Both the position numbers and the translations under genes were made by a program. The notes under the pieces were generated by a model. The model saw only the letters and a program-made list of their open reading frames with translations. It was not told the origin of the DNA and ran no database searches. A stretch of DNA of 64,000 nucleotides, taken from the NCBI GenBank assembly GCA_041687695.1, contig JAWLBL010000023.1, positions 91,840 through 155,839 on the forward strand. The letters are read 5' to 3'. This DNA comes from Myxococcota bacterium. Lineage in GTDB: Bacteria > Myxococcota_A > UBA9042 > PHBI01 > JAWLBL01. Below are positions 36,443-57,853 of the stretch, piece after piece (the stretch's first letter is position 1; each line of letters starts with the position of its first letter).

Positions 36443-36874
36443 CCCGCGAGCCGCCGCGCCGCGCTTCCCGCTGGCCCACGGTCGCCGGTGGCCGGGTCGG
36501 TGTCGGGCCGGCCTCGCGTCAGGGGGCCGGGATCCTGATGAACAGACGCGCCAATAGGCCATCGCCGCCCCAAGCGACCCGACATTCAAGCGCCGCGCGA
36601 GTTCCTAGGTTCCGGCGGCCGCCTCGCTTGGTGGAGTCACGGAAGTTGCCGACGAGGACGTCCGATCTCGGGTGGCGGGGACGAGGGGAGGGCAGCGCCG
36701 TCGCGAACGGCTTCGAGGGACGTGACCCCTGAGGTCGGGAGGTGGGCATCATCGGGCCCTTACTCGAGAGGTCATTGCGGGGCGCGGGCGGACACGCGTA
36801 AGGTCCCGCGCATGCTCTCCCATCGCGAACACTTCGAGCGCCCGGGCGCGGCCGCCCGCCCGGCGTGTGGCCCC

Positions 36875-39346
36875 ATGACCCTCTTGAAGGTCATGTTCAT
36901 CGTTACCTTGGCGCTGCCGGCTTGCGACAGCCCCGGCATGGGCTCGCCTGGGCCCGGGCAACCGGGGCCGGGCGGCGACGCCGCCGACGTGCTGGCGAGC
37001 AAGGCGGACGGCCACGTCGATGCCGCCGTCGAGGACCTGGGCGACGGCGGCGGCCCGGCCTCGAATGACGCGGGGCACGAGCTGCCTCCGGAGGCCGACG
37101 CTGGGACCGACGTGGCGGCGGCCGACGACGACGTGGGGCTCGTCGATGTGTCGGAGCTGGACGCGCTGGTCGCGGACGACGCCGCCGACGGCGCGCCCCT
37201 TGGCGACGACGCGCAGGAGGTCGACGGCCAATCGGACGCGGTGGAGTCGCCCGAGGACGCGCTGGCCGAGGGTGACGTCGCGGTGGGACCGGCTGACGTC
37301 GTGGAGTCGCCCGAGGACGCGATGGGCGAGGGCGACGGCGGCGCGCCCGACACGGACGCGGCAGGGGGAGGGGATGCGGACGTCAGCTGGGAGGACGTCG
37401 CCGAACCCGACGTGCTGGGGCCGGCCTGCGGCGACGGCCAGTGCGCGGCCGGCGAGTCCTGCGACGGCTGCCCCGAGGACTGCGGCGCCTGTCCCGACGA
37501 CGCCTGCTGCACGGCGAGCGCCGCCCCCGGGTGTGTCGTCGGGGACATCGAAGCGTGCGTCTGCGCGAAGGACTCCTACTGCTGCACCACCGCCTGGGAC
37601 TCGTATTGCGTCGACGAGGTCGACGAGTTCGGCTGCGGGACGTGCGGTGCGGCCTGCGGTGACGACGTGTGTGACGACGGGGAAGACTGCCTGACCTGCA
37701 GCGGCGACTGCGGCGCCTGTCCGCCCGACCCCTGCGGGGACGGCCTCTGCGGCACCGACGAGGACTGCGTGACCTGCAGCGCCGACTGTGGGGTCTGCCC
37801 GCCCAAGTCCTGCGGCGACGGCTACTGCGGCGCCGGCGAGTCGTGCGCCACCTGCCCGGGCGACTGCGGGGCCTGCGGCCAGGGCGACTGCTGCGCGGCG
37901 CAGGGGACGCCGGGCTGCGGCGACCCGGTGGTCCAGGGTTGCGTGTGCGCGGTGGACGAAGCCTGCTGCACCGGCCCGTGGAGCGAGTGGTGCGCCTTCC
38001 AGGCCGAAGTGTTGGGATGCGCGGAGTGTCAGCGGCCCGAGTGTACCGGCTCGGCGTGCGAGCTGGCCGACCCGCCGCTGTCCGTGGCCTCGCTCCACAT
38101 CCAGGAGGACACCACCTGGAGCGGTCACGTCGAGGTCGGAGGCTGGGGCGTCCAGGTCGTCGCCGGAGCGACCCTGACGCTGAGCCCCGGGACCCGGGTC
38201 CGCTTCCACCCCGCGGCCGGCCTGTCGTCGTTCGGCAGCGTCCTCGTCGCCGGCGAGCCGGGGAACCCGGTCGTCCTCGAGGCCGCCGACCCTGCGACCC
38301 CCTGGCCCGGCGTGCGGACCAACGGCGACGGGGACATCGTCATGGCTCACACCCTGGTCCGGGACGCCACCATCGGGCTGCTGTCGCGCGACTTCGCCGT
38401 CAGCCACTCCAGGTTCGTCCGCTGCGGCGTGGGCATCGAGACCGGCGGGGACACGTCCACGTCGCAGAGCATCAGCGAGGTCGAGGTGGCCCATGGCGGG
38501 ACGGGCATCGTCATCGAAGACCAGCCCATCGTCTCGCTCCACCGCGTCTTCGTTCATCACAACACCGGCGCCGGCGTCGTCAGCTCCGACGCGACGACCC
38601 TCTCCGACTCCATCATCGCAGCCAACGACGGCCCCGGGATCCTCCTGACCGGCTACGGCGGCGGAAAGCTCACCGGGAACACGCTGGCCTACAACGGCCG
38701 CGAGGCCGTCCGCGTGGTCTCTCAGACCCCGGGGGTCGGCACCCAGACCGTCCCCAAGGTGAACGGCAACAACATCGTGGGCAACTCGGCGCTGTTCACG
38801 ACCGTGCGCTGGGCCCCCAAGCCGGTCATCGACGTCGACCTCCCCGAGGACAGCCCGGTGGGGGTGAAGACGCCCACGGTGAACCTGCCCGAGGGCGGCT
38901 CCCGCGTGGAGTACATGCGCGTCTTCCAGATTGAGAAGCCGTCGGCGCTCTACACCGACGCCTATGTGCACGACGCGGCGCAGTCGGGGGACTCCATCTG
39001 GTGGAAGTCGCCCAGCGCCGGCTGGTACCGCGACGTGCGGTCGCTCGACGCGTCCAGCTTCTACTTCTCGACGAACCTGCAGCAGGGCTCGGGCTACGAG
39101 CTGTCGTTCAGCGTCCCCGTCGTCGCCTACCGCGCAGCCCTGGGCGGCGCCACCCCGCCGGTGCAGGTCACGTGCCTGAAGAACGGCGCCACCACCAACC
39201 TGAACGACAACTACTGGGGCAAGCCCCCGGAGCCCGGAGACATCGTAGGCGAGCCCAACACGGCCTCCTTCGCCCTGGACTACTTCCGCACCACCTTCAG
39301 CGACACCCCCCACCCCCTGACACCCACGGTCCCCCAGCTGCCGTGA
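36875..39346 (+). CDS. Large lipoprotein: acidic linker, Cys-rich repeats, parallel beta-helix domain
   Basis: Lipobox LPAC; 4x CGDx.C...E.C..C..DC; 2x CC...CVC...CC...W repeats; GATLTLSPGT and N.G.GI beta-helix repeats. Confidence 0.8.
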   Translation: MTLLKVMFIVTLALPACDSPGMGSPGPGQPGPGGDAADVLASKADGHVDAAVEDLGDGGGPASNDAGHELPPEADAGTDVAAADDDVGLVDVSELDALVADDAADGAPLGDDAQEVDGQSDAVESPEDALAEGDVAVGPADVVESPEDAMGEGDGGAPDTDAAGGGDADVSWEDVAEPDVLGPACGDGQCAAGESCDGCPEDCGACPDDACCTASAAPGCVVGDIEACVCAKDSYCCTTAWDSYCVDEVDEFGCGTCGAACGDDVCDDGEDCLTCSGDCGACPPDPCGDGLCGTDEDCVTCSADCGVCPPKSCGDGYCGAGESCATCPGDCGACGQGDCCAAQGTPGCGDPVVQGCVCAVDEACCTGPWSEWCAFQAEVLGCAECQRPECTGSACELADPPLSVASLHIQEDTTWSGHVEVGGWGVQVVAGATLTLSPGTRVRFHPAAGLSSFGSVLVAGEPGNPVVLEAADPATPWPGVRTNGDGDIVMAHTLVRDATIGLLSRDFAVSHSRFVRCGVGIETGGDTSTSQSISEVEVAHGGTGIVIEDQPIVSLHRVFVHHNTGAGVVSSDATTLSDSIIAANDGPGILLTGYGGGKLTGNTLAYNGREAVRVVSQTPGVGTQTVPKVNGNNIVGNSALFTTVRWAPKPVIDVDLPEDSPVGVKTPTVNLPEGGSRVEYMRVFQIEKPSALYTDAYVHDAAQSGDSIWWKSPSAGWYRDVRSLDASSFYFSTNLQQGSGYELSFSVPVVAYRAALGGATPPVQVTCLKNGATTNLNDNYWGKPPEPGDIVGEPNTASFALDYFRTTFSDTPHPLTPTVPQLP

Positions 39347-43671: not shown

Positions 43672-43977
43672 ATGGCCATCAGCGGACTGATCATCACCTG
43701 GCCGGACGACGCCACGCGCGCCGCCGCCGCGCGCCTCGCCGTCGCCGGCGACCCGCGCTTCGAGCTCGGCCCGGCCGAGGGGCACCGCCAGGTCGCCGTC
43801 CTCGACACGCCCGACCCGCGGGGCGACCGCGAGGCCATCGCCTGGCTGCTCGGCACCGCCGGCGTCGTCCACGCCGACGTCGTCTGCGTCCACCTCGATG
43901 ACGCCCCGCCCCCCACCGCCCGCGCCGCCGAGCCCGGCCCGGCCTGCCTCGCCACATCGGGAGGGACCCCCTCATGA
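43672..43977 (+). CDS. napD: NapD-like chaperone
   Basis: MAISGLII N-terminus, GVVHADVV; about 100 aa, overlapping the napA start. Confidence 0.7.
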   Translation: MAISGLIITWPDDATRAAAARLAVAGDPRFELGPAEGHRQVAVLDTPDPRGDREAIAWLLGTAGVVHADVVCVHLDDAPPPTARAAEPGPACLATSGGTPS

Positions 43978-46415
43978 GCATGGACCGCCGCAGCTTCATC
44001 CGTCGGAGCGCCATGGCCGCCGCGGCCGCCGCGCTCGCTCCCGGCCTCGACCTCGGGGCCGCCTCGGCCGCCAGCGGCGCCGCGGGGCCCGCGCCCGGCG
44101 CCACCGGCGTCAAGTGGGACAAGGCCCCCTGCCGCTTCTGCGGCACCGGCTGCCACGTGCAGGTCGGCGTCGAGGGCGGCCGCGTGGTCGCCATTGCCGG
44201 CGACCGCCAGGCCGAGGTCAACCGCGGGCTGCTCTGCGTCAAGGGCTACCACGTCGGCCTCGCCCTGTACGGCGAGGACCGCCTGACCCGCCCCATGCTG
44301 AGGAAGAACGGGCGCCTCGAGCCCATCTCCTGGGACGAGGCCCTCGACACCATCGCCGGGCGCATCATGGCGGCCCCCGAGCGCTTCGCCTTCTACGGCA
44401 GCGGCCAGTGGACCATCCCCGAGGGCTACGCCGCCAACAAGTTCATGAAGGGCGGCCTCGGCAACAACCACATCGACCCCAACGCGCGCCTGTGCATGGC
44501 CTCGGCCGTCACCGGCTTCCTCGCGACCTACGGCGTCGACGAGCCCGCGGGCTGCTACGACGACCTCGACGCGGCCGACGTCGTCATCCTCTGGGGCAAC
44601 AACCCCGCCGAGATGCACCCCGTCCTCTTCTCGCGCCTCATCGACCGCCGGGCGCGCGGCGAGTCCGTCCGCATCATCGACATCGGGACGCGCCGGACGC
44701 GCTCGACCGAGCACGCCCAGCACTACCTCGAGTTCAGGCCCCAGACCGATCTGGCCATCGCCAACGGCATCGCCCACCTCCTCGTCCAGCGCGGCACCTA
44801 CGACGCCGACTTCGTCGCCAAGCACCTGGCCTTCCGCGCCGACTCCGAGCCGGCCACGAACGCTGGAAAGGCCATCACCTTCGAGGAGTTCAAGGCGTCG
44901 CTCGCGCCCTACACCCCCGAGCACGTCGAGGCCGTCTCAGGCGTCAAGGCCGCCGACATCCGCATGCTCGCCGACCTCTTCGGCGACCGCTCGCTGCGCA
45001 TCACGAGCCTGTGGTGCATGGGGATGAACCAGCACACCCGCGGGACCGCCATCAACACCCTCGTCCACGGCGTGCACCTCCTCAGCGGCCACTTCGGCCG
45101 CCCGGGCGACGCCCCGACGAGCCTCACCGGGCAGCCCTCGGCGTGCGGTACCGTGCGCGAGGTGGGCACGCTGGCCCACGCCCTGCCCGGCGGCCTCGTG
45201 GTCACCGACCAGGCCGGCCGCGACAAGGCCGAGAAGCTCTGGAACCTCCCGCCCGGCCGCATCCAGCCCAAGCCCGGCCACCACACCGTCGAGATGTGGA
45301 AGCGCTTCTGCACCCCGACCGCCGACGGCGGCGACATCGCCACCCTCTGGGTCCAGGTCACCAACCCGGGGCAGACCCTGCCGAACCTCCACGCGCTCTT
45401 CCGCGGCAAAGAGGGCCTCGCCGACAAGTTCCTCATCGTCTCGGACGTCTACCCGACGGCGACCACGGCGCTGGCCGACCTCGTCCTGCCCTCGGCCATG
45501 TGGGTCGAGAAGAACGGCATGTACGGCAACTCCGAGCGCCGGACCCAGCAGTGGTTCAAGATGGTCGACCCCCCCGGCGAGGCGCGCGACGACTGCTGGC
45601 AGACCATCGCCGTCGCGCGGCGCCTGCACGACCTCGGCCACCCCGGGATGAAGGACAAGGACGGCAAGTTCATCTTCTCCATCCCCGACGCCACGGGCGC
45701 CGAGGTCCCGGTCTGGCAGTGGGAGCGCTACTACGACGTCAACGTCGACCGGCACCTCTTCGAGGAGTACCGGCCGTTCACGCGCTTCAAGCACAAGGAT
45801 CTCGCGCCCTACGACGAGTACGTGGCGGCGCGCGGCCTCCGCTGGCCGGTCGTCCAGCAGCCCGACGGCCGCTGGCGCGAGACCAAGTTCCGGTTCTCCG
45901 AGTTCGACGACGGCTACGTCGCGCGCGGCAAGGGCATCGACTTCTACCACTCCCCCACCAAGGACGGACGCGCCCAGGTGTGGGCCCGACCCTACGAGCC
46001 GCCGCCCGAATCCCCCGACGCCGACTACCCGTTCTGGCTGTGCACGGGGCGCGTCGTCGAGCACTGGCACTCGGGGACCATGACGATGCGCATCCCGCAG
46101 CTGCGGCGCGCGATGCCGTCGGCCTACGTCGAGATGCACCCCGAAGACGCCCGCGCCCTCGGCATCGGCAACGGCGACGAGGTGAGCGTGTCGACCCGGC
46201 GCGGCGAGCTCTCCCTCCCTGCGTGGATCGGCGGTCGCGGCGCGCCGCCGCGCGGCAGCCTCTTCATCCCGTTCTTCGACGAGACGCGCCTCGTCAACCT
46301 CCTCACCCTCGACGCCCACGACCCCTTCTCCAAGCAGCCCGACTACAAGAAGTGCGCCGCCCGCGTCGCCCCTCGGCCGCGTAGGGCGGCGACCGCGCCC
46401 GGGAGGTCCGAATGA
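43974..46415 (+). CDS. napA: Periplasmic nitrate reductase catalytic subunit
   Basis: Tat RRSFI; KWDKAPCRFCGTGC; SGQWT; DPNARLCMASA; SLTGQPSACGTVREVG; SKQPDYKKCA. Confidence 0.96.
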   Translation: MSMDRRSFIRRSAMAAAAAALAPGLDLGAASAASGAAGPAPGATGVKWDKAPCRFCGTGCHVQVGVEGGRVVAIAGDRQAEVNRGLLCVKGYHVGLALYGEDRLTRPMLRKNGRLEPISWDEALDTIAGRIMAAPERFAFYGSGQWTIPEGYAANKFMKGGLGNNHIDPNARLCMASAVTGFLATYGVDEPAGCYDDLDAADVVILWGNNPAEMHPVLFSRLIDRRARGESVRIIDIGTRRTRSTEHAQHYLEFRPQTDLAIANGIAHLLVQRGTYDADFVAKHLAFRADSEPATNAGKAITFEEFKASLAPYTPEHVEAVSGVKAADIRMLADLFGDRSLRITSLWCMGMNQHTRGTAINTLVHGVHLLSGHFGRPGDAPTSLTGQPSACGTVREVGTLAHALPGGLVVTDQAGRDKAEKLWNLPPGRIQPKPGHHTVEMWKRFCTPTADGGDIATLWVQVTNPGQTLPNLHALFRGKEGLADKFLIVSDVYPTATTALADLVLPSAMWVEKNGMYGNSERRTQQWFKMVDPPGEARDDCWQTIAVARRLHDLGHPGMKDKDGKFIFSIPDATGAEVPVWQWERYYDVNVDRHLFEEYRPFTRFKHKDLAPYDEYVAARGLRWPVVQQPDGRWRETKFRFSEFDDGYVARGKGIDFYHSPTKDGRAQVWARPYEPPPESPDADYPFWLCTGRVVEHWHSGTMTMRIPQLRRAMPSAYVEMHPEDARALGIGNGDEVSVSTRRGELSLPAWIGGRGAPPRGSLFIPFFDETRLVNLLTLDAHDPFSKQPDYKKCAARVAPRPRRAATAPGRSE

Positions 46416-47167
46416 GCCACACCGCCCCACCGACCGGCCCGCCGGGCGGGCGCTCGTTGCTCGAGGTGGGCCTGACGGTCGTCATCGGCATCGCGTTCGC
46501 CGGCTACCTCGTCGGGACGCGCGCCGCGCCGACCCCGGCCCTCACGCCCGTGACGCCCTTCGCGCTGGCCGAGGCCGTCGTCGACGCGCCCGACCGCGCG
46601 CTGACCTGGGGCGAGCTCGGCTCGGTCCGGCGCGGCCCCAACCAGGGCCCGTCCAGCGATCTCGCGGCGCTCGCCATCCCGCGCAGCGACCGCACCCCGG
46701 CGCCGCCCGGACCCGAGGAGCGCCTGGCGGCCCTGTCCTCGCGCGCCGAGCGCCGGGCCTACGACGGCGCGCCGCCCACCGTCCCGCACGCCATCGACCA
46801 GGTCAGGGCGGGCTACTGCCTGTCGTGCCACGCCGAGGGCATGCGCCTGGGGGACCGCGTGGCGAGGCGCATCAGCCACCCGCCCTATGCCCAGTGCACC
46901 CAGTGCCACGTCGCCTCCGAAGGGCCGCTGCGGGCCGCCGGGATCGCGCCCCCGTCGACGTTCGCGGGGCTGCGTGGCCACGCGGGCGGCGAGCGGGCCT
47001 GGCCCGGGGCCCCGCCGACCATCCCGCACACGACGCTGATGCGCGAGGACTGCGCCTCGTGCCACGGCCCGGCCGGGCCCGTGGGCCTGCGCACCAGCCA
47101 CCCCGAGCGCGGCAGCTGCACGCAATGCCATGCCCCCTCGGCGGTCCTCGACCAGCGGGGAGGCTGA
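46412..47167 (+). CDS. napB: NapB-like cytochrome with duplicated domain (4 hemes)
   Basis: Two copies of GAPPT(V/I)PH...CxxCH...SHP...CTQCH. Confidence 0.85.
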   Translation: MSHTAPPTGPPGGRSLLEVGLTVVIGIAFAGYLVGTRAAPTPALTPVTPFALAEAVVDAPDRALTWGELGSVRRGPNQGPSSDLAALAIPRSDRTPAPPGPEERLAALSSRAERRAYDGAPPTVPHAIDQVRAGYCLSCHAEGMRLGDRVARRISHPPYAQCTQCHVASEGPLRAAGIAPPSTFAGLRGHAGGERAWPGAPPTIPHTTLMREDCASCHGPAGPVGLRTSHPERGSCTQCHAPSAVLDQRGG

Positions 47168-47172
47168 CCGCC

Positions 47173-47601
47173 ATGAGCGCGCGACCCCGACCCGAGCCGG
47201 CGGCCCTCACGCGCCGTTCCTTCCTGTGCGGCGGCTTCCTCAGCCAGCTCGCCGAGGCGATCCGCCCCGCCGACGTGACGACGCCGGCGCCCGCTCCGCC
47301 GCCGCCGCGAGCGAACGAGCCCGAACCCACGCCCCCGTGGGCCCGTGCCGCCCGTCGCGCCGGCCCCCCGCCGCCGCCCGGCGGCCCGGCCCGCATCCTC
47401 AATTACCTGTGCCTCGCCCACCAGGGCACCGCATGCAGCGCCTGCCGCGAGCACTGCCCGATGCCGGGCGCCATCACGCTCCTCGGCGGCCGTCCCCAGG
47501 TCGTGGCCGCCCTGTGCACGGGCTGCGGCGCCTGCGTCGACGTCTGCCCCGCGCCCGCGCCCGCCGTGGTCCGCCTGCCCCTGCCCCCGAGGACCCCATG
47601 A
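47173..47601 (+). CDS. NapF/NapG-like ferredoxin (short)
   Basis: TRRSFL; CLAHQGTACSACREHCP; CTGCGACVDVCP. Confidence 0.8.
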   Translation: MSARPRPEPAALTRRSFLCGGFLSQLAEAIRPADVTTPAPAPPPPRANEPEPTPPWARAARRAGPPPPPGGPARILNYLCLAHQGTACSACREHCPMPGAITLLGGRPQVVAALCTGCGACVDVCPAPAPAVVRLPLPPRTP

Positions 47602-47909
47602 GCACCCTCGCCGCCGATCCCCCCCTCCCCGACGTCTTCCGCGGCGAGCTGGACCCGGCCGGCCTCGGCCGCCTCTTCAGCGATCTCGCCGGCTTCGCCA
47701 CCCTCGACGAGGTCCGCGTCAAGGGCCCGCCCGGCCGCCGCTGCATGGAAGACACCCCAACCCTCGGCGACGCCCTCGCCCGACTCCTCTCCGGCGACGT
47801 CCGGGGCGTCCAGGTCCGCTACACCTTCGAGGGCCGCGGCTGGTGCGACACCGTCCTCGTCCTCTCCGCCGGTCGCTACGCCCTCACTCGCCTCCGCGCT
47901 CCCGTCTGA
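47598..47909 (+). CDS. Hypothetical protein ending the nap operon
   Basis: ATGA overlap; GAGGA RBS; GVQVRY...WCDT motif. Confidence 0.7.
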   Translation: MSTLAADPPLPDVFRGELDPAGLGRLFSDLAGFATLDEVRVKGPPGRRCMEDTPTLGDALARLLSGDVRGVQVRYTFEGRGWCDTVLVLSAGRYALTRLRAPV

Positions 47910-48127
47910 CGCCCCCCTCCCGACCCGTCGCACCGGTCAGGCACCACCGTAGCTCGGCGTGAACGAACGCCAGCGTCGAACGGCGACGGCCATCTCGCGG
48001 CCATGGTCGTCGATCAGCGTGGCCAGCGAGGTGTAACCCCATCGCGCACTGACCTCCGTCACCGCGTCGGAGACGACGAGCCGCCCCTCGTCGTCCTCGA
48101 AGATGGCCCGCCGCGCCGGCGCGGCGG

Positions 48128-48350
48128 TCAGCGCTCCTCGAAGGAGCCGTAGGCCTCGGCCAGGTGCTCGATCAAGCAGCGCACCGCCGGCAGCAGGCCT
48201 CGGCGCGAGGGGAACACCACGTGGATGATCTCCGGCGGCTGCCAGTCGGGCAGCACGTCGACCAGGCGCCCGGCCGCCGGCATTGCCCCCGCTCTCATCG
48301 AGGCCGAGGTGGCCGAGCAGGCCGGCGGTGCATGCGGAACCGTGCGGCAT
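48128..48350 (-). pseudogene. LysR-type regulator remnant (C-terminal end only)
   Basis: AAGRLVDVLPDWQ...IHVVFPSRRGLLPAVRCLIEHL is a typical LTTR C-terminus; no HTH; divergent from pirin. Confidence 0.7.
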
Positions 48351-48453
48351 CGTTCTACTGGCGCAACGCTGTGGTCATTAGACGTGTCTATTCCGGCAAG
48401 CGTTGCGGCCATAGGATGCAACGGTCTCAGATTGGACGACACGGAGGACCGAG

Positions 48454-49317
48454 ATGAAACCAATCCTGGCGACCCGAAGCGCACCGGCGCCCCACTGGGT
48501 GGGCAACGGTTTTCCGGTGCGCTCCTTGTTCAGCTACGCGGACCGTCATCTGCCGCTCAGCCCGTTCCTGCTGCTGGACTATGCCGGTCCCACCCGGTTT
48601 CCGGCCGGCCGTGAGCGCCGCGGCGTCGGCGAGCACCCGCACCGCGGGTTCGAGACCGTGACCATCGTCTACGGCGGCGAGGTCGAGCACCGCGACTCTT
48701 CCGGTGGCGGCGGTGTCATCGGTCCCGGCGATGTGCAGTGGATGACGGCCGGCGGCGGGATCCTGCACGAGGAGTTCCACACCGAGGCCTTCACCCGACG
48801 TGGCGGCGAGCTGGAGATGGTCCAGCTGTGGGTCAACCTGCCGGGACGAGACAAGCTCACGCCGGCGCGCTACCAGGCCATCGTCGACGCCGACATCCCG
48901 GTCATCGAGCTGCCCGACGCGGCTGGTCGCCTGCGCCTCATCGCCGGCGAGCTCGACGGTCGACGCGGGGCCGCCGAGACGTTCTCGCCGGTTGACGTCT
49001 GGGACCTGCGGCTGGCGGCCGGCAAGCGGGTCGAGCTGCCCGCCGCCGACGGCCGCAGCCTGATGGTCGTAGCGCTGCAGGGCACGGTGCTCGTCAACGA
49101 CGAGGCGATCCTGCGGGACGCGCAGCTGGCCGTGCTGGACCCACACGGCGAAGGCGTCGCCGTGCAGGCCGACGGCGACGCCAAGCTGCTGGTGCTGGGC
49201 GGAGCGCCCATCGACGAGCCGGTGGTGGGCTACGGCCCCTTCGTCATGACCAGCGAGGCCGAGATCCGGCAGGCCATCGCCGACTTCAACAGCGGCCGCT
49301 TCGGCCGCGCTCCCTGA
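48454..49317 (+). CDS. Pirin-family protein
   Basis: PFLLLDY, HPHRGFETVT, GDVQWMTAGGGILHEE, QLWVNLP, GPFVM. Confidence 0.95.
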   Translation: MKPILATRSAPAPHWVGNGFPVRSLFSYADRHLPLSPFLLLDYAGPTRFPAGRERRGVGEHPHRGFETVTIVYGGEVEHRDSSGGGGVIGPGDVQWMTAGGGILHEEFHTEAFTRRGGELEMVQLWVNLPGRDKLTPARYQAIVDADIPVIELPDAAGRLRLIAGELDGRRGAAETFSPVDVWDLRLAAGKRVELPAADGRSLMVVALQGTVLVNDEAILRDAQLAVLDPHGEGVAVQADGDAKLLVLGGAPIDEPVVGYGPFVMTSEAEIRQAIADFNSGRFGRAP

Positions 49318-49424: not shown

Positions 49425-50003
49425 CTAACGCGCCAGCTCGAATGACTCGAGCACCAGCTCGGTCTGCAGGGTCCGCTGCCCGTCGGTCTCGGTCACCACC
49501 TTTATCCTGACGATACCGACGCGCGGAGCGAAGGTGATCTCGCTCACCAGCGTGGTCTTCGCGTCCATCTCGTTGCGGCTCTCGACCCGTACGCAGCGCT
49601 CGAACCGCCCCGCTGGCACCTCGCAGGGGACCCCGGTCTCCAAGATCCGGTAGCGCTCCGTGAACGAGTCCGACACCACGTTGGTCCAGCCTCGCCCAGC
49701 CTCGACGGGCTCCCTCAGCAGGTAGCGCTTGCGGTCGGTGATCCCGAGCGCGTCCACCGAGAGCTGCCCGCCCTCGCTATCGGAGAACACCCCGCCCTCC
49801 TCCCGCTCGATCCGGACCGTCTGCTTGGGGCCCTCGCCCCGGAGCGCGACCCGATACGTCCAGCGGTTGCCGACCGCCAACGGGTAGTAGATGGCAACGC
49901 CGGGCCCTCCTCCTGGCGACCGCGCGTCCAGCCGCGTCACACACCCCGCCGCAGCCACCACCGCCAGCACCAGGAGCAACAGCCGTTTCGTCGTCGTCTT
50001 CAC
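49425..50003 (-). CDS. Hypothetical lipoprotein
   Basis: Lipobox AAGC; YYPLAVGNRWTY; VPAGRFERC; FAPRVGIV. Confidence 0.8.
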   Translation of the reverse strand: MKTTTKRLLLLVLAVVAAAGCVTRLDARSPGGGPGVAIYYPLAVGNRWTYRVALRGEGPKQTVRIEREEGGVFSDSEGGQLSVDALGITDRKRYLLREPVEAGRGWTNVVSDSFTERYRILETGVPCEVPAGRFERCVRVESRNEMDAKTTLVSEITFAPRVGIVRIKVVTETDGQRTLQTELVLESFELAR

Positions 50004-50303
50004 GCGTCGTCCTCCCCTCGAGCCAAGGGCCCCGAGGGCAGATCCCAACTTGCCGCCGCCGGGTCAAGCCCCAACTCGCAGACAACGCCACGCGTCACGC
50101 CTCAGGTCCCGCCGGCCGCTGTGCCGCGCTCTCGCCGGCGTGCTCGGAGGGAGCAAACGGCGGACGCGAGCTGCGATCTCTGTCGCGGTGCATCCCGTGA
50201 ATCGAGGCACAGGACGATCGCCGCCTGGCGCATCACCCCGGTCTCGCCAACCGCCTCGCGGACGGGCAGGGGGGGGCGCACGTCTCGGTGCCCCTCTCGG
50301 GCC

Positions 50304-51770
50304 TCAGGGGGCCGCGCAGACGAGCCCGCACTTGTAGGTCGCCATGAAGACGCAGGCGTCGTCCCAGGTCCCGCTGCAGCAGGTGGGGTCGAAGCCGCAG
50401 ACGCACGCCTGGAGGTCCGGCGAGTCGGGGCAGCCCGGCGTGGCGCTGGCGTCGCAGCAGGTGCCGGGCGGGACCTGGGGCGGGCACTGGGCGCCGCAGC
50501 CTTCGGCGAGGAAGACGCAGACGTCGTCCCAGTCCTCGGCGCAGCAGCTCGGGTCGGCGGCGCACACGCAGGCCTCGATCTCCGGGTCCTCGGCGCAGCC
50601 GGGGCCCGACCAGGTGCAGCACGCCGGAGCGGCGACGGCGCAGGGCCAGACGCCGATGCAGTCCGGGTCCAGGCAGTCGACGGAGAGGTCGCCGTCCTCG
50701 TCGACCCCGCCCGTGCACTTCTCCGGCGGGAGCTCGCAGGCCGCCAAGCAGGAGAGCTTCGCCTTGTGAGCGCACGACAGGTCCCAGTCGTCGGTGCAGC
50801 AGGTCGCGTCGATGGCGCAGACGCACGCCTCGACGGCCGGGTCGGCGCCGCAGCCGGCCTGGGGCTTGGGCGTGCAGCAATCGAGCGGGCCACCGCAGGC
50901 CTCGAGATCGGCGCAGTCGGGGTCGGCGCAGTCGGCCAGCCCGTCGCCGTCCTCGTCGCCGGCCACCGCGCAGTCCTCGACGGCGGGTGGGCAGTCGGCC
51001 CAACAGCCCGTCGCGCAGCGCCCGCCGCACAGCGTCGCCTTCGCCGCGCAGGCCAGGTCCCAGAGCCCCTCACAGCAGAAGGGGTCGTCGGCGCAGACGC
51101 AGGCCGCCACCGCCGGCTCGGCCGCGCAGCCGGCCCCCGCCGCCGCCTCGCAGCACGGGCTCGGCGCCTGGCAGAGGGGCACGCCGGCGCAGTCGAGGTC
51201 GGCGCAGTCGATGCCGCCGTCGCCGTCGTCGTCGAGGCCGTCGTTGCAGGCCGCCTCGCCCGTCGGGCCGGCGTCGCCGCCGACGTCCTCGTCCCCGGCA
51301 TCCGCCGCGACATCGGGAGTGCCACCGTCGGGCACGACGTCCTCCGGCGTCCCCTCATCGGTCACGACGTCTTCGGGCCCGGGGTCTGGCGTCACATCCT
51401 CCGGCGTCCCATCGTCGGCCACCACGTCCCCGGGTGTCGCCTCGTCGGGGAGGACGTCCCCGGGTGTCGCCTCGTCGGGGAGGACGTCCTCGGGGCCGAC
51501 GTCTGGCGTCACATCCTCCGGCGTCGCCTCGTCGGGCACCACGTCCTCCGGCGTCGCCTCGTCGGGCACCACGTCCTCGGGCGGCAGCTCCGGCGCGACG
51601 TCCTCGGGTGTCGCCTCGTCGGCCGTCACGTCCTTGGCTCCGTTGGCGTCCTCGCCCGCCACCTCGTCGCCAGCGGCGTCCGGCGCGCCCTGCGGCCCGT
51701 CCTCGCCGCACGCCGCCAAGATCAGCAGCGCCATCCCCCCAATCAACGTTCGCGTCACGTCGCGCCTCAC
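50304..51770 (-). CDS. Lipoprotein: acidic decapeptide stalk, Cys-rich repeats, DxDGD Ca-binding-like repeats
   Basis: Lipobox LAAC; about 11 EDVxPDEATP units; 4 CC-CVC-CC-W repeats; 3 D.DGD...DC.D.DC units; GTGA overlap with the upstream gene. Confidence 0.8.
   Translation of the reverse strand: MRRDVTRTLIGGMALLILAACGEDGPQGAPDAAGDEVAGEDANGAKDVTADEATPEDVAPELPPEDVVPDEATPEDVVPDEATPEDVTPDVGPEDVLPDEATPGDVLPDEATPGDVVADDGTPEDVTPDPGPEDVVTDEGTPEDVVPDGGTPDVAADAGDEDVGGDAGPTGEAACNDGLDDDGDGGIDCADLDCAGVPLCQAPSPCCEAAAGAGCAAEPAVAACVCADDPFCCEGLWDLACAAKATLCGGRCATGCWADCPPAVEDCAVAGDEDGDGLADCADPDCADLEACGGPLDCCTPKPQAGCGADPAVEACVCAIDATCCTDDWDLSCAHKAKLSCLAACELPPEKCTGGVDEDGDLSVDCLDPDCIGVWPCAVAAPACCTWSGPGCAEDPEIEACVCAADPSCCAEDWDDVCVFLAEGCGAQCPPQVPPGTCCDASATPGCPDSPDLQACVCGFDPTCCSGTWDDACVFMATYKCGLVCAAP
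51316..51635 (-). repeat. Coding 27/30-bp tandem repeat (EDVVPDEATP)
   Basis: About 11 degenerate units visible in both DNA and protein. Confidence 0.85.
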
Positions 51771-53569
51771 AGCTTCGCCACCTGCGCCAGGGACGTCAGC
51801 CGGGCGCGTAGCCCTGGCCGCACCCCCGGAGTCGCCAGCATCGTCTCGAGGGCGGCGGCGATCTCGCCCCTCGCCCGGGTCTCGACGTGCCGCTGAAAGA
51901 GCGTATGGAGCACGCCGAAGTTCGCCGCCGCGATCCGCCCCTCGGCCGCGGCCCGGATGACCGGCGCAACGGCCCCGTGGCTGGCGAAGCTGCGGATGGC
52001 CGCCTTCTGCACCGCCGGGTCCGGGTCGACCAGCAGCGGCCCCCACGCCGCGCTCGGCGGCAGCCTCCGGATGGCGATCGCCACCGCCCGCCGCAGCTCC
52101 GCCGAGGGCGCGTCGACGAGCTCCGCCAGCACCTCGGCCGACCGCGGGCGCCCTGCGTTGCCGAGGGCGGCGACGTAGTGGGCGCGGTCCTCGTCGGGAG
52201 CGTCGTCGAGGGCCGCCTCGAGCTCGGCCGCCAGAGCGTCCGCCCGCGCCGGCTCGCCGCTCCGGCCCAGCGCGTGGGCCACCGCCCCGAGGGTGTAGGC
52301 CGCGGCCATGCGCACCTTCGGGCGCGGCCCCTCACGCCACACCTGCCGCAGGAACGCGACGGTCTCGGCCGCTGGCGCGTCGAGGGCCAGCAGGCGCTGG
52401 ACGCGGGCCCCGGCGAGCGGCGCGTCGGCCGCCACCTCGGCCCGCAGCAGCCGCACCGCCGCCGCCTGGGCCGCCGGCGAGCCCGCGGACGCCAACAGAT
52501 CCAACCCGAGGTCGCGCGCCGCGTCGCTGGTCCCGGGCTGGGACCAGGCCGCCTCCAGGGCGCGGACCGCCTCGGGCGACCGCTCGAGCAGCGCGCTCGC
52601 CTGCACCAGGAAGCCGGCGTGCTCGGGCCCGCCGATCGACTCCCTGGTGGCCCCCGCCACCCGGGCCGCCAGCGCCACGGCGGTCAAATCCCCGGCGCGC
52701 GCCGCCAGCACCCGGTCCCGCGCGTCGGGCCCGGCCGGCGCCGCCGCGGCCATGGGCGGCAGCACGTCGAAGGTGCCGCTGGCCACCGCCGGGTCGCCCG
52801 GCGCGACGCCCGTCCGCTGGGCGGTCAGGGTCAAGGACGCCTCGAAGCGCTGTGCGCTCCGGACGCCGGAAATCTGCACCCGCTCGTCGGTCCGCACCGA
52901 GACCGGCGCGCCCGCCTCGTCGAGCTGGGCCGTCAGCCCGCCGGCGACCCGGGCCTGGCTGGCCGGGACGCCCAGGGACGCCGCCGCGAGCAGCTGGCGG
53001 TAGGCGCGCGGCCCGCGCCGGACCTCGCGCCCGTCGCGGGTGAACGTCGCGTCGGCGATGCCCTGGGGGGTCCGCTCCTCGGCGCTCCAGCGAACTTCGC
53101 TCGCCGGGATCGGCGGCAAGAGCTCCGGGGCGACCAGGCGGGCCAGGTGCCGGAAGCTCGCGCTGGCCCCCGCCGAGACGGCGATCTCGTCCACGGCGCC
53201 GTGGGCGTCGAGCCGCACCCGCGCCCGGTGCCCGGCCAGCGCGAGCGGCTCGGCCTCGTCGCGCCCGAGGACCCGGACCTCCAGCCGCTCGGGCGTCCCG
53301 AACCGCAGGACGCGCTCGCGGGGGCTGGTGACCTCGACGGAGACCGGTCCGGTGAAGACGACGCGTCCTCCGAGCGGCGCCTCGCCCATCGCGACCGTGG
53401 TCTCGGCGGTGAGCGCGACCCGCCAGCTCTGCCGAACCGCCCGGGCGACCTCGGCCGCCGGCGGCCTCTGCTCGAGCTGCGGCCCCGGTCCGTCGAGCGC
53501 CGTCCAGACCGCGACCGCGCCGACCAGCAGGCCGGCGCCCGTCACCCAAATCGTCGTGTTCCGTCCCAT
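51767..53569 (-). CDS. N-terminally anchored protein with beta-rich N-domain and HEAT-like helical repeats
   Basis: TM at residues 8-25; beta-strand region; AYTLGAVA, AALGNAG, ELRRAVAIA and DPAVQKAA helical repeats. Confidence 0.8.
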   Translation of the reverse strand: MGRNTTIWVTGAGLLVGAVAVWTALDGPGPQLEQRPPAAEVARAVRQSWRVALTAETTVAMGEAPLGGRVVFTGPVSVEVTSPRERVLRFGTPERLEVRVLGRDEAEPLALAGHRARVRLDAHGAVDEIAVSAGASASFRHLARLVAPELLPPIPASEVRWSAEERTPQGIADATFTRDGREVRRGPRAYRQLLAAASLGVPASQARVAGGLTAQLDEAGAPVSVRTDERVQISGVRSAQRFEASLTLTAQRTGVAPGDPAVASGTFDVLPPMAAAAPAGPDARDRVLAARAGDLTAVALAARVAGATRESIGGPEHAGFLVQASALLERSPEAVRALEAAWSQPGTSDAARDLGLDLLASAGSPAAQAAAVRLLRAEVAADAPLAGARVQRLLALDAPAAETVAFLRQVWREGPRPKVRMAAAYTLGAVAHALGRSGEPARADALAAELEAALDDAPDEDRAHYVAALGNAGRPRSAEVLAELVDAPSAELRRAVAIAIRRLPPSAAWGPLLVDPDPAVQKAAIRSFASHGAVAPVIRAAAEGRIAAANFGVLHTLFQRHVETRARGEIAAALETMLATPGVRPGLRARLTSLAQVAKL

Positions 53570-53572
53570 CGG

Positions 53573-56500
53573 TCACTCGCTCGCCGGGCACTCGACGATG
53601 CCCTGCTGTTGGCACACCTCGATGAGGCCCAGGATCGGGATGGTCAGGCTGGTCCCGAACAGGCGGGAGTCGTGCCGGATCCCGCGCCAGGACGCGATCG
53701 TCTTGTCGTACCGCTCCTTCCACACGCCGACGTCGATCTCCGCGAAGAGCTTGAAGCGCCCGTCGAGCGCCCGCAGGACGAGGTCGGCCGTCGACTCGAG
53801 GCGGGCGATGACGTCGAGCCCCTCGAGCCCGATGAAGGCGTGGAGCGTGAGCGGGAGATCGAGGCCGAGGACGACCACCTCGCCGCGGACCCCGGCCCGG
53901 ACGACCGTGTAGTCGACGGCCGCCGAGAGGAAGCCGTAGACCTCGATCACCGGGCGAATCGACGCGTCGAGCCGAGCGTGGACCTCGGCGATGGGCGTCG
54001 CCACGTCGACGTCGGTCTGGACCTCGATGACCCCGCCGAGGCCCCCGCTGATGCGCACCGGCACGCCGGCGATGGGGAACACCGGCCCGTCGAACTCGTA
54101 CTCCTCGGCGCGGGTGTAGCTGTCCTCGACGAAGTTCCAGTCCTGCGGGATCTCGATGGGGAAGGCGTCGTCGAAGAGCTGGACCCCGAGCACCTCGATC
54201 CCGAGGGCGCTCGGCTCGCTGCCCGGGCGGGTGCCGTTGATGGTCAGGTCGGCCGCGATGAGCGGGATGCGCTTGCCCAGGGCGCGCCCCTCGGCCCAGA
54301 TGCCGGCGGCCGCGCGGATGTCCGACACGTTGTCCTGCGCGCTGGAGATCGCCAGGTCCACGATGTCCCACGCGAAGTGGTAGTCGTAGTCGTAGCCGAA
54401 CCAGTCGTCGGACTTGCGGCGCATCTCGTCGATGGACTTGCCGGTGCGCGGCTGGCCGTCTTCGGTGGTCAACCCGAGGCTGGCCAGGTGGTTGGCCACG
54501 TCGATGAGCCACTGCCTGTGGTCGACGAAGAACTGCTCGAGGGCGACGGTGTCCGCCGTGTAGTCCTTGTCGGGGTACGTCTTGTCCCCGATGGGGGTGA
54601 ACGCGTAGCCGTCGAGGCTCGCGAAGTCCACGGACCCGGTCTCCTCGCGGCAACGCTCGAGGTCCTGGTCGCGGCCCGCGGGCGGGTGGCGCTGGAGCTG
54701 CTGCACGAAGTCGCGGGGCGACCAGTCGCACGGGTTCGCCTCCAGGGTCAGGCACCCGAGGGCGTCCGCCTCGACGATGGCCTCGACGACCGCGTCGACC
54801 CGCCGCTCGGCGAGGGCCTCGAGGGCGGCGATCTGCTCGGGCGAGGCCTGGTTGTCGAAGGTCGACGGCACGTCCTGCTCGAGGCCCGAGATGGCCGCGA
54901 GGTGCTGCTGGTGGTCGGTCACCACCTCGGGCATCACCGCGCCGCGCGCCAGGGCCAGCGCCTGCAGCGCGTACTCGGCGGCCTGGACCAGCTGGCGGTA
55001 GCGGTCCTTGATGGGCTCGTACGACAGCAGCTCGCCGTCGTCGTGGCCCTGGGCGGCCAGGGTGTCGGACATCTGGCGGTGCCAGGCGAAGCCCTTGTCG
55101 GTCTTCGGCATGCCCTGGCGCACGCGGGCCCAGATCTGCGGCCCCTTGGGCGGGGCGAACCCGGAGAAGGCGTCGCCCTCGAGCAGCCACAGGTCGGCGT
55201 TGAAGGTCGCGTGCTCGCTGAGGGCGACGTAGAGGAAGGTGGGGATCTCGAAGAACGGGCTCTTGGCGCGTGGCTCGGTGATGTCCACCGCCTCGGCCGG
55301 CTGCCCCGACCGGCGCCGCAGCCCGTCGCCGTCGAGGGTGCGCGTGGCCACCGACGCCGCCTCGGCGAGCGGGCCGTAGGCCAGGTCGAAGATGGCCCGG
55401 TAGTCGCCCGCGAGCGCCGCCGCCCCGTCCTCGAACTGGTGCCAGTCCCAGTGTTTCTCGTAGAGGTACTCCTCGCAGGCCGACACGCCCGCGCCGTTGA
55501 TGTCCCACAGGCCCTTGATGAACGCCTCGGTCGCCGGCGCGTAGGCGGCCCACGGGGTGGCGCGCGAGACGACCGGCGCGTCGCCCTCCCACGGGTCGGG
55601 GACGGCCTGGGTGACCGACAGGGCGCTATCGGGCCGATAGGCGACCAGGGCCGACGTGCCGTACAGGGTCGGCCGCACCGCCGTGACCGTCTCGCCGGAG
55701 GTCTGCAGCGCCCCACCCACGGCCTCGCCGGCCTGACGGGCGTGCTCGTGGCAGGGGTGGCTCGCGTCCTGGCGCGCCCCCTCCAGCATCAGCCGCCCAC
55801 ACAGGCGGTCGAGGAAGGCCGGGTCGGTGCAGTGGAAGGCGCTCGGCGCGGGGCACAGGGCGTCGTCGAAGGTGCCGAGCGCGACCGGCGCCGGCGCCCC
55901 TCCGAAGACGAAGAGGTCGTCGGGCAGGCAGACCCCAGCGGTGCACGAGGTCCCCGCCGCGCAGGCGCAGTCGGCCGCGCAGCTCAGGCAGTCCTCGCCC
56001 GGGGAGCACTGCCCGTCGCCGCAGACCTCGGCCTGACAGAGCGCGACGGCGAGGTCGGCGCACCCGCTGTCCCAGTCGGTGTCGCAGCAGAAGGCCTCGA
56101 AGTCACAGACGCAGGCCTCGACGACGTCGTCGCTGCACCCGGGGGAGCCGTTGGCCTCGAGGCACGGCCCCTCACCGGCCGCCGGCGTCAGGCAGCCCGC
56201 GCCGCACGCGTGGGCGAGCGTCACGCACCCGGCGTCCCAGGCGTGGCTGCAGCACCACGGGTCCTGGTCGCAGACGCAGTCGGCGACGGTCGCGTCGGCG
56301 CAGCCGCCCGGGGTGGTCGACGTGTCGCAGCACCCCGGCAGGGTGCACACCGCGCCGCAGGCCTCGGCCTGGGCCACGCACTCGGCCGTCCACGGGCCGG
56401 CGCAGCACGCCGGCAGGGCGTCACACACGCAGGCCTCGACCGGGAACATGACGCAGCCCGGCGAGGCGTGCTCGTCGCAGCAGGGGAACTCGCCGACCGA

Positions 56501-57853
56501 GAAGCACACGCCGTCGCAGGTGGCGGCGAGGACGGCGCAGGCGGCGTCCCAGCGCTCGGTGCAGCAGGCGGGCCGGGTGCTGCACACGCAGGACTCGACG
56601 GCGGGCTCGATGCAGCCGGCGGCGTCCGGGGAGGGTCGGCAGCAGTCGCCCTTGGGGGCCGGCGGCGGGGCGCAGTCGGCCCCGCACAGCTCGGCGACGG
56701 TGGCGCACAGGGGCGACCACCCGACCGAGCAGCACTCGGGGCGCTTTTGGCACACGCACGCCTCGACGGACGCATCGGTGCAGCCCTTGGCCGGTCCGGC
56801 CTCGCAGCAGGGGCCCTTGGGCGGCCCGCACGGGGCGCCGCAGCCCTCGGCCAGGGTGACGCACTGGCTGTCCCATTGGCTGTTCAGGACCGAGCAGCAG
56901 GTCGCGTCCTGCGCGCAGACGCACTGGGTGACGGCTGGGTCGGCGCACCCGGGCCCGGCGTGCGGCTCGCAGCAGGCGCCCGTGTGCAGCTCGGCGCAGG
57001 CGCCGCATTGGGTCGAGGCCTGGTCGGCGCAGATGAAGTCCCAGCCCTGGGTGCAACAGGTCGCGTTGAGGTTGCACACGCACGACTGGACCGCCGGCTC
57101 GTCGCACCCCAGGCCGTCGTGGCCCTCGCAGCACGGCCCCGGCGGGCAGTAGGCGCCACACTGCTCGCGCGCCATCTTGGCGCACGCGCCCGTCCAGTTC
57201 CCGGTGCAGCAGTTGGGGAAGATGTCGCACACGCAGCCCTCGATGGTCGGGTCGGCGTCGCAGCCGACGCGATCCCAGTCGGGCACGCAGCACGGGCTGG
57301 CCGGCCCGCACCCTGCCGAGCACTGCGTCTCGGCCAGCTCCGCGCACGAGGCCGTCCACTCGTTGCAGCACGCCGGCTCGAGCCCGCACACGCACGCCTC
57401 GACCGTCGGGTCCTCGCAGCCCCCGGAGACGTGCGCCGAGCAGCACGAGCCCTTCGCCCCGGAGCCACACGCCTGGCCGCACTGGGTCTGCGCCCAGTAC
57501 ACGCAGTCGCCGTTCCAGAAGCTGCAGCAGTCCGGGTGCGCGTCACAGACGCAGGCCTCGACCGTCGGGTCGTTGCACCCCGGCTGCCCCATGGCTTCGC
57601 AGCACCCCAGCGTCGACCCGCCGCCGGTGCACACCAGCCCGCACTCGGTCTTGGCGAGATCCTGACACCCGCTGTGCCACATCGAGGTGCAGCAGAAGTC
57701 GTCGATGGCGCACACGCACGCTTCGACGGCCGGGTCCGCGCACCCCGGTGTGTTCACCGGATCGCAGCACGGCTGGTCCCCCGCCGCCGCGGGCTCCGCC
57801 CACAGGACGACCACAGCCGCCAGACAAGCGGCCCACACGCTCCGTCCCAGCAT
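53573..57853 (-). CDS. Large secreted protein: 11 Cys-rich repeats, helical middle, C-terminal beta-sheet domain
   Basis: GGAG RBS, signal peptide (AxA), 11x CC...GC...CVC...CC...W...C...C, then non-repetitive domains. Confidence 0.85.
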   Translation of the reverse strand: MLGRSVWAACLAAVVVLWAEPAAAGDQPCCDPVNTPGCADPAVEACVCAIDDFCCTSMWHSGCQDLAKTECGLVCTGGGSTLGCCEAMGQPGCNDPTVEACVCDAHPDCCSFWNGDCVYWAQTQCGQACGSGAKGSCCSAHVSGGCEDPTVEACVCGLEPACCNEWTASCAELAETQCSAGCGPASPCCVPDWDRVGCDADPTIEGCVCDIFPNCCTGNWTGACAKMAREQCGAYCPPGPCCEGHDGLGCDEPAVQSCVCNLNATCCTQGWDFICADQASTQCGACAELHTGACCEPHAGPGCADPAVTQCVCAQDATCCSVLNSQWDSQCVTLAEGCGAPCGPPKGPCCEAGPAKGCTDASVEACVCQKRPECCSVGWSPLCATVAELCGADCAPPPAPKGDCCRPSPDAAGCIEPAVESCVCSTRPACCTERWDAACAVLAATCDGVCFSVGEFPCCDEHASPGCVMFPVEACVCDALPACCAGPWTAECVAQAEACGAVCTLPGCCDTSTTPGGCADATVADCVCDQDPWCCSHAWDAGCVTLAHACGAGCLTPAAGEGPCLEANGSPGCSDDVVEACVCDFEAFCCDTDWDSGCADLAVALCQAEVCGDGQCSPGEDCLSCAADCACAAGTSCTAGVCLPDDLFVFGGAPAPVALGTFDDALCPAPSAFHCTDPAFLDRLCGRLMLEGARQDASHPCHEHARQAGEAVGGALQTSGETVTAVRPTLYGTSALVAYRPDSALSVTQAVPDPWEGDAPVVSRATPWAAYAPATEAFIKGLWDINGAGVSACEEYLYEKHWDWHQFEDGAAALAGDYRAIFDLAYGPLAEAASVATRTLDGDGLRRRSGQPAEAVDITEPRAKSPFFEIPTFLYVALSEHATFNADLWLLEGDAFSGFAPPKGPQIWARVRQGMPKTDKGFAWHRQMSDTLAAQGHDDGELLSYEPIKDRYRQLVQAAEYALQALALARGAVMPEVVTDHQQHLAAISGLEQDVPSTFDNQASPEQIAALEALAERRVDAVVEAIVEADALGCLTLEANPCDWSPRDFVQQLQRHPPAGRDQDLERCREETGSVDFASLDGYAFTPIGDKTYPDKDYTADTVALEQFFVDHRQWLIDVANHLASLGLTTEDGQPRTGKSIDEMRRKSDDWFGYDYDYHFAWDIVDLAISSAQDNVSDIRAAAGIWAEGRALGKRIPLIAADLTINGTRPGSEPSALGIEVLGVQLFDDAFPIEIPQDWNFVEDSYTRAEEYEFDGPVFPIAGVPVRISGGLGGVIEVQTDVDVATPIAEVHARLDASIRPVIEVYGFLSAAVDYTVVRAGVRGEVVVLGLDLPLTLHAFIGLEGLDVIARLESTADLVLRALDGRFKLFAEIDVGVWKERYDKTIASWRGIRHDSRLFGTSLTIPILGLIEVCQQQGIVECPASE

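Follow-up and report, generated by a model that had tools for sequence, protein, structure and literature searches.

Predicted front and back halves of the animal fat-carrier fold, encoded as separate exported chains, suggest a two-piece bacterial lipid carrier

The large lipid transfer proteins (LLTPs: MTP, vitellogenin, apoB) have been described as lipid carriers of animals, with an emergence tied to multicellularity (PMC12214520); MTP is likely the oldest member (PMC6717300), and both sources treat the family as an animal one (PMC12214520, PMC6717300). The second source also describes a disulfide of the N-terminal barrel conserved in MTP, lipovitellin and apoB, which in MTP joins Cys174 and Cys194 (PMC6717300). 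The literature that we searched, with subscription papers lying mostly outside the search, yielded no description of a bacterial form; bacterial clusters tagged Vitellogenin_N are already present in the databases. Here we analyze a bacterial locus in which, according to structure models, the front and back halves of this fold appear to be encoded as separate exported chains, which suggests a carrier made of two pieces.

The window (the whole stretch of 64,000 nucleotides that was analyzed) contains three consecutive genes on the minus strand: gene 1 (53573..57853; 1426 aa), whose ATG is preceded by a Shine-Dalgarno-like GGAGGAG stretch, gene 2 (51767..53569; 600 aa) and gene 3 (50304..51770; 488 aa), which starts with GTG. 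The stop codon of gene 1 is separated by 3 bp from the ATG of gene 2, and genes 2 and 3 overlap in the tetranucleotide GTGA, so that the coupled arrangement reported in a preliminary description of this DNA is borne out by the ORF coordinates and junctions; the sequence motifs cited there were likewise all found in the translations. In genes 1, 2 and 3, GC content reaches 0.97, 0.96 and 0.94, respectively, at the third codon position, versus 0.55-0.59 at the second, and the annotated frames are therefore coding. Relatives of the locus come from Myxococcota-type genomes (three named records and Atlas clusters). Elsewhere in the window, a small exported protein is encoded at 49425-50048 on the same strand, 255 bp past gene 3. 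The region 43974-47909 (plus strand) we take to be a periplasmic nitrate reductase-like cluster (molybdopterin subunit, c-type cytochrome and ferredoxin), and 47937-49317 presumably comprises a pirin-like gene (48454-49317, plus strand) and, on the opposite strand, what appears to be a LysR-type regulator reduced to a C-terminal remnant.

Gene 2 had been described as a membrane-anchored protein with a beta-rich N-terminal domain followed by helices, and its structure model agrees. A single hydrophobic helix at residues ~7-24 (53498..53551) is probably a signal anchor rather than a cleaved signal, and a hydrophobic N-terminal segment is present in 129 of the 137 members of the gene-2 family. 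The model, together with the alignments, places a beta-barrel or N-sheet round a central helix at residues 45-269 (52763..53437), as at the N-terminus of LLTPs, and the model and a profile search place an alpha-helical superhelix at residues 281-599 (51773..52729), as in the region that follows the LLTP barrel. Within the superhelix lies the motif ALGNAG (residues 468-473), an instance of the LGNxG pattern that is conserved in animal LLTPs and occurs in 64 of the 137 family members. Alignments of the model to 1lsh, 9enr and 9bd1 begin at residue 42-43, the apoB barrel entry 9bd8 is matched with E=3.5e-8, and in the helical region the profile matches fall on residues 338-509 of 1lsh and 398-603 of MTP. 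On these models gene 2 is almost certainly an LLT module, forming the front of the fold and preceded by the hydrophobic anchor. It contains no cysteine (the family median is one) and therefore cannot form the barrel disulfide, unlike MTP.

Gene 1, which the preliminary description had taken for a secreted protein of about 1430 residues, begins with what reads by eye as a signal peptide I-like segment (residues 1-24; 57782..57853) and would be the secreted partner chain. There follow an arm of 11 tandem eight-cysteine repeats of ~52 aa each (residues 29-598; 56060..57769) and, ahead of the beta domain, a helical domain of ~450 residues (~672-1125; 54479..55840) framed by four invariant cysteines (793, 1034, 1042 and 1068) and containing a CDWSP motif; this helical domain is found in 37 of 101 partner ORFs. 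The cysteines of the chain total 127, and a Pfam scan found neither a vWD nor a CTCK domain in it. The beta domain consists of a predicted equivalent of the MTP C-sheet, with six shorter strands (residues 1138-1231; 54161..54442), and of the A-sheet, with six long kinked strands (residues 1242-1406; 53636..54130), followed by a short helix (residues 1407-1415); it is of MTP size, and most strands have one hydrophobic face. As judged from the models, these sheets are very probably homologous to the C- and A-sheets of LLTPs. By modelling and search, gene 2 aligns to residues 31-609 of MTP and the C-terminus of gene 1 to residues 611-880, so that on MTP the one match complements the other, in agreement with the earlier proposal that gene 2 supplies the barrel and helices and gene 1 the cavity sheet. 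Instead of the single-polypeptide layout of LLTPs, there is a stop codon and a change of frame between the two genes, and no ORF in the loci that we fetched is matched by both profiles.

It could be argued that the likeness to LLTPs is generic, with gene 2 a HEAT-repeat protein and gene 1 an adhesin that has nothing to do with it, since HEAT_2 is the best Pfam match of gene 2 and designed HEAT proteins head the sequence search and reach similar Z. However, the HEAT matches begin after residue 280, whereas the LLTP matches span both the barrel and the helices (residues 42-587 of the model), and gene 1 finds the same superfamily independently, with a match complementary to that of gene 2. We therefore consider a coincidence very improbable and largely refuted. 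Another reading accepts the LLTP fold, but has it reused without any lipid being carried: the sheets of gene 1 would enter a membrane, either the cell's own outer membrane, where they would anchor the arm, or that of prey, where they would form a pore, and until then gene 2 would act as a shielding chaperone. In structure searches with gene 1, however, barrel proteins match one sheet only (~140-150 residues) while MTP covers both (234 residues), and in Foldseek all barrel and pore proteins are found at E>=0.012. Moreover, the final residue is F, W or Y in only 13 of the 101 partners, and 11 of the 101 extend by more than 40 residues, up to 1538, beyond the beta domain. We regard membrane insertion as quite unlikely. 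An autotransporter reading of gene 1 was rejected on the C-terminus as well, which in gene 1 is a helix with a final Glu.

Gene 2 homologues give 98 matches in 60 of the 401 genomes of the phylum, and DNA was fetched round 80 of them, mostly the best-scoring ones. Six database proteins, all from outside these 80 loci, were used to build a profile of gene 1. It detected a partner at 59 of the loci, and at 68 after one iteration on the loci themselves; 58 of these partners lie upstream on the same strand, seven downstream and three on the opposite strand. The 12 loci at which the profile detected no partner include three with fewer than 300 bases upstream, three with barrel-less homologues, one with the partner 11 kb off and one with a divergent look-alike upstream, recognized by eye. 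In the source genome, with its 47,034 ORFs, the beta-domain profile has three matches, and immediately downstream of each lies one of the three full-length copies of gene 2. Viewed from the other side, the gene 1 core occurs in 62 of the 401 genomes, and both genes occur together in 51, versus nine expected by chance, a comparison that is partly circular and counts kin that are not independent. When 31 loci were fetched starting from gene 1, gene 2 followed immediately downstream in 18; seven end within ~1.1 kb, one is the case with the partner 11 kb off, one has no match, and four have room for gene 2 downstream but lack it there, their upstream side being cut off. The two genes are thus conserved together in other genomes, as the proposal in the preliminary description required. 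The trees of 83 pairs also agree (Spearman 0.67; supported splits shared 26/32 and 39/54), and this agreement and the linkage show joint inheritance, not binding.

The source genome contains two further pairs, at G000:C4:59574-64111 (L003) and G000:C55:7342-12050 (L093). In the former, the partner bears two copies of the eight-cysteine repeat, and the genes that come next resemble, by eye, sigma-54 activators, PEGA proteins and kinases; the latter is distant, and a small lipoprotein comes next. In L035 / L114 (G121:C23) ~11 kb separate the partner from gene 2, which are adjacent in close relatives. Several gene-2 homologues possess the helical domain without the barrel (L069:8911-10380, L076:8928-10082, L068, L080 and L087); those of L069 and L076 still have a partner beside them. 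This points to the helical clamp as the indispensable part.

Gene 3 is, as described before, a lipoprotein (Cys21) with an acidic low-complexity stalk (residues ~22-170) and repeats of the kind found in gene 1; a single regular expression returned exactly the counts claimed, 11 in gene 1 and four in gene 3. In gene 3, which has 55 cysteines, the four are interleaved with three NF033662 acidic double-disulfide repeats (64.6 bits versus a cut-off of 41). The latter repeats, like the helical domain of gene 1, are absent from the preliminary description. The eight-cysteine repeat itself has no match in the copies of Pfam and NCBIfam searched, while two homologues carry the precomputed label PF26780. 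It is a mobile module, copies of which are carried by 12 ORFs of the source genome; besides genes 1 and 3, an ORF at 36722-39346 (plus strand) of the window has two copies. Outside the C4 paralogue of the same genome it is absent from all other fetched loci, and none of the 64 genes that follow a gene-2 homologue is homologous to gene 3, so that gene 3 and the cysteine arms, which the earlier description had counted among the parts of the system, are not conserved ones. Some lipoprotein occupies the third slot at 30 of the 54 loci with a same-strand next ORF (genome baseline 81/671), an excess that owes much to a single family of close relatives; three of the 30 are, moreover, the partner itself. 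Because none of the 64 following genes resembles gene 3 and the slot is often filled by some lipoprotein, gene 3 is best read as an accessory, optional tether and not as a conserved part of the system.

The arms of the partners are equally variable. Pfam matches in 10 of 29 scanned partners include LamG, C-type lectin, CBM96, PKD, cadherin-like and other cysteine-repeat domains, in some partners placed C-terminal to the beta domain, and two partners (312 and 364 aa) consist of little more than a signal peptide and the beta domain. Minimal partners of ~310-365 aa are found at L077:11066-12001, L078:7866-8957 and L097:10876-11910, the last, missed by the profile, looking by eye like a divergent one. 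At L107:10648-18149 two tandem partner genes, one with a CBM96 domain, precede a single gene-2 homologue. In the clade of L083, L089, L094, L100, L101, L103, L106, L112 and relatives, giant partners of ~3,000 aa or more have Dicty_CTDC repeats and LamG, and the third gene encodes a conserved ~730-aa lipoprotein with 110 cysteines. In the 2245-aa record P0156 the gene 1 core lies C-terminal to a mid-chain stretch that we take to resemble a MYXO-CTERM sorting signal, possibly two genes called as one.

The best explanation overall, to which we assign a probability of about 0.6, is an anchored two-chain MTP-like lipid module. Both chains would leave the cytoplasm by Sec, with gene 2 remaining tethered by its N-terminal helix on the periplasmic side of the inner membrane. 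By analogy with single-chain MTP, the two products probably form a heterodimer, in which the helical clamp and the barrel pit of gene 2 would grip the two sheets of gene 1 and close a small, MTP-like hydrophobic cavity with room for a single lipid or a few; we lean towards lipid actually occupying it. The module may extract a lipid at the inner membrane and then hold it or pass it on within the envelope. The rest of gene 1, made up of cysteine repeats in this locus and of lectin, PKD or other repeats in others, would be an exchangeable arm serving to place the cavity or to attach to a surface, and gene 3 would be the optional lipid-anchored tether, perhaps binding gene 1 via the shared repeats.

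Alternatively, gene 2 could behave towards gene 1 as MTP does towards apoB, with the same fold and the same contact, though a transient one. It would hold and lipidate gene 1 in the periplasm, and gene 1 would then leave for the cell surface or for vesicles as an adhesin loaded with lipid. The LamG, C-type lectin, CBM96, PKD and cadherin-like arms suit an outside location, and gene 2 has its probable inner-membrane anchor. On the other hand, the beta domain of gene 1 is MTP-sized with one hydrophobic face on most strands and would therefore need gene 2 to close the cavity, and no secretion genes recur beside the pair in the fetched neighbourhoods; such loading and export is unlikely. Since the surface is a more fitting place for lectin arms than the periplasm, it is retained together with the chaperone for insertion. 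The preliminary description had also raised the capture of prey lipids. Here a surface complex would bind prey or other external material with its variable lectin and adhesin arms and strip lipid from prey membranes into the cavity. In the source genome, which is 99% complete, no sterol or hopanoid cyclase was found, so outside cargo is possible. However, no uptake system recurs beside the pair in the same neighbourhoods, gene 2 would be exposed to the periplasm if held by a signal anchor, and nothing examined links the locus to predation; such scavenging is improbable and was unsupported speculation. As for the cargo of the preferred anchored module, endogenous sterols or hopanoids are unlikely, because no such cyclase was found here and because no association with such cyclases is seen across genomes. 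No lipid enzyme or transporter recurs beside the pair in the fetched neighbourhoods; the recurring neighbours named by eye resemble Ser/Thr kinases (14 loci) and sigma-54 activators (five loci).

If true, the full MTP anatomy on two bacterial genes would place the origin of the fold outside animals, make the question of fusion versus fission testable on a tree, and add a candidate lipid-handling system to the Myxococcota-type envelope; natural variants, namely the 312-aa partner and the front chain without a barrel, give an idea of the smallest unit. It is tempting, though we would sooner doubt than assert it, to see here a widespread modular bacterial LLTP, in which a barrel-and-clamp chain anchored in the inner membrane docks an exchangeable cavity chain armed with adhesins or lectins to bind and move lipid within the envelope, and which represents the ancestral state before the fusion that gave rise to MTP, vitellogenin and apoB.

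Among characterized proteins, the NF033662 (acid_disulf_rpt) proteins resemble gene 3 through its three repeats above the curated cut-off; the difference lies in the eight-cysteine repeat of genes 1 and 3, which is unmatched in the Pfam and NCBIfam copies searched. ApoB-100 (beta/alpha1 region, PDB 9BD1 and 9BD8) is a single chain of 4,500 residues, unlike the pair, which has no long amphipathic belt. With lipovitellin and vitellogenin (PDB 1LSH, 9ENR, 9ENS) the N-sheet and helical domain of gene 2 align over 505-522 residues, and there are weak Vitellogenin_N and Vit_open_b-sht matches; however, the bacterial sheets are of MTP size rather than forming a large funnel, and there are two chains at the gene level. 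MTP-alpha (PDB 6I7S, 8EOJ) has the same order of half-barrel, superhelix, six-strand C-sheet, longer six-strand A-sheet and terminal helix, and it too lies outside the cytoplasm, as the bacterial pair presumably does. The pair differs in being encoded by two genes in swapped order, in the N-terminal membrane anchor on its front half, in the cysteine-free gene 2, and in the large arm and helical Cys-framed domain ahead of the gene 1 sheets; identity is 8-12%, and no PDI-like partner is seen in the neighbourhood. Because it departs from the single-chain layout and the barrel disulfide, we do not class the pair as an ordinary LLTP; in its predicted anatomy, it is MTP-like.
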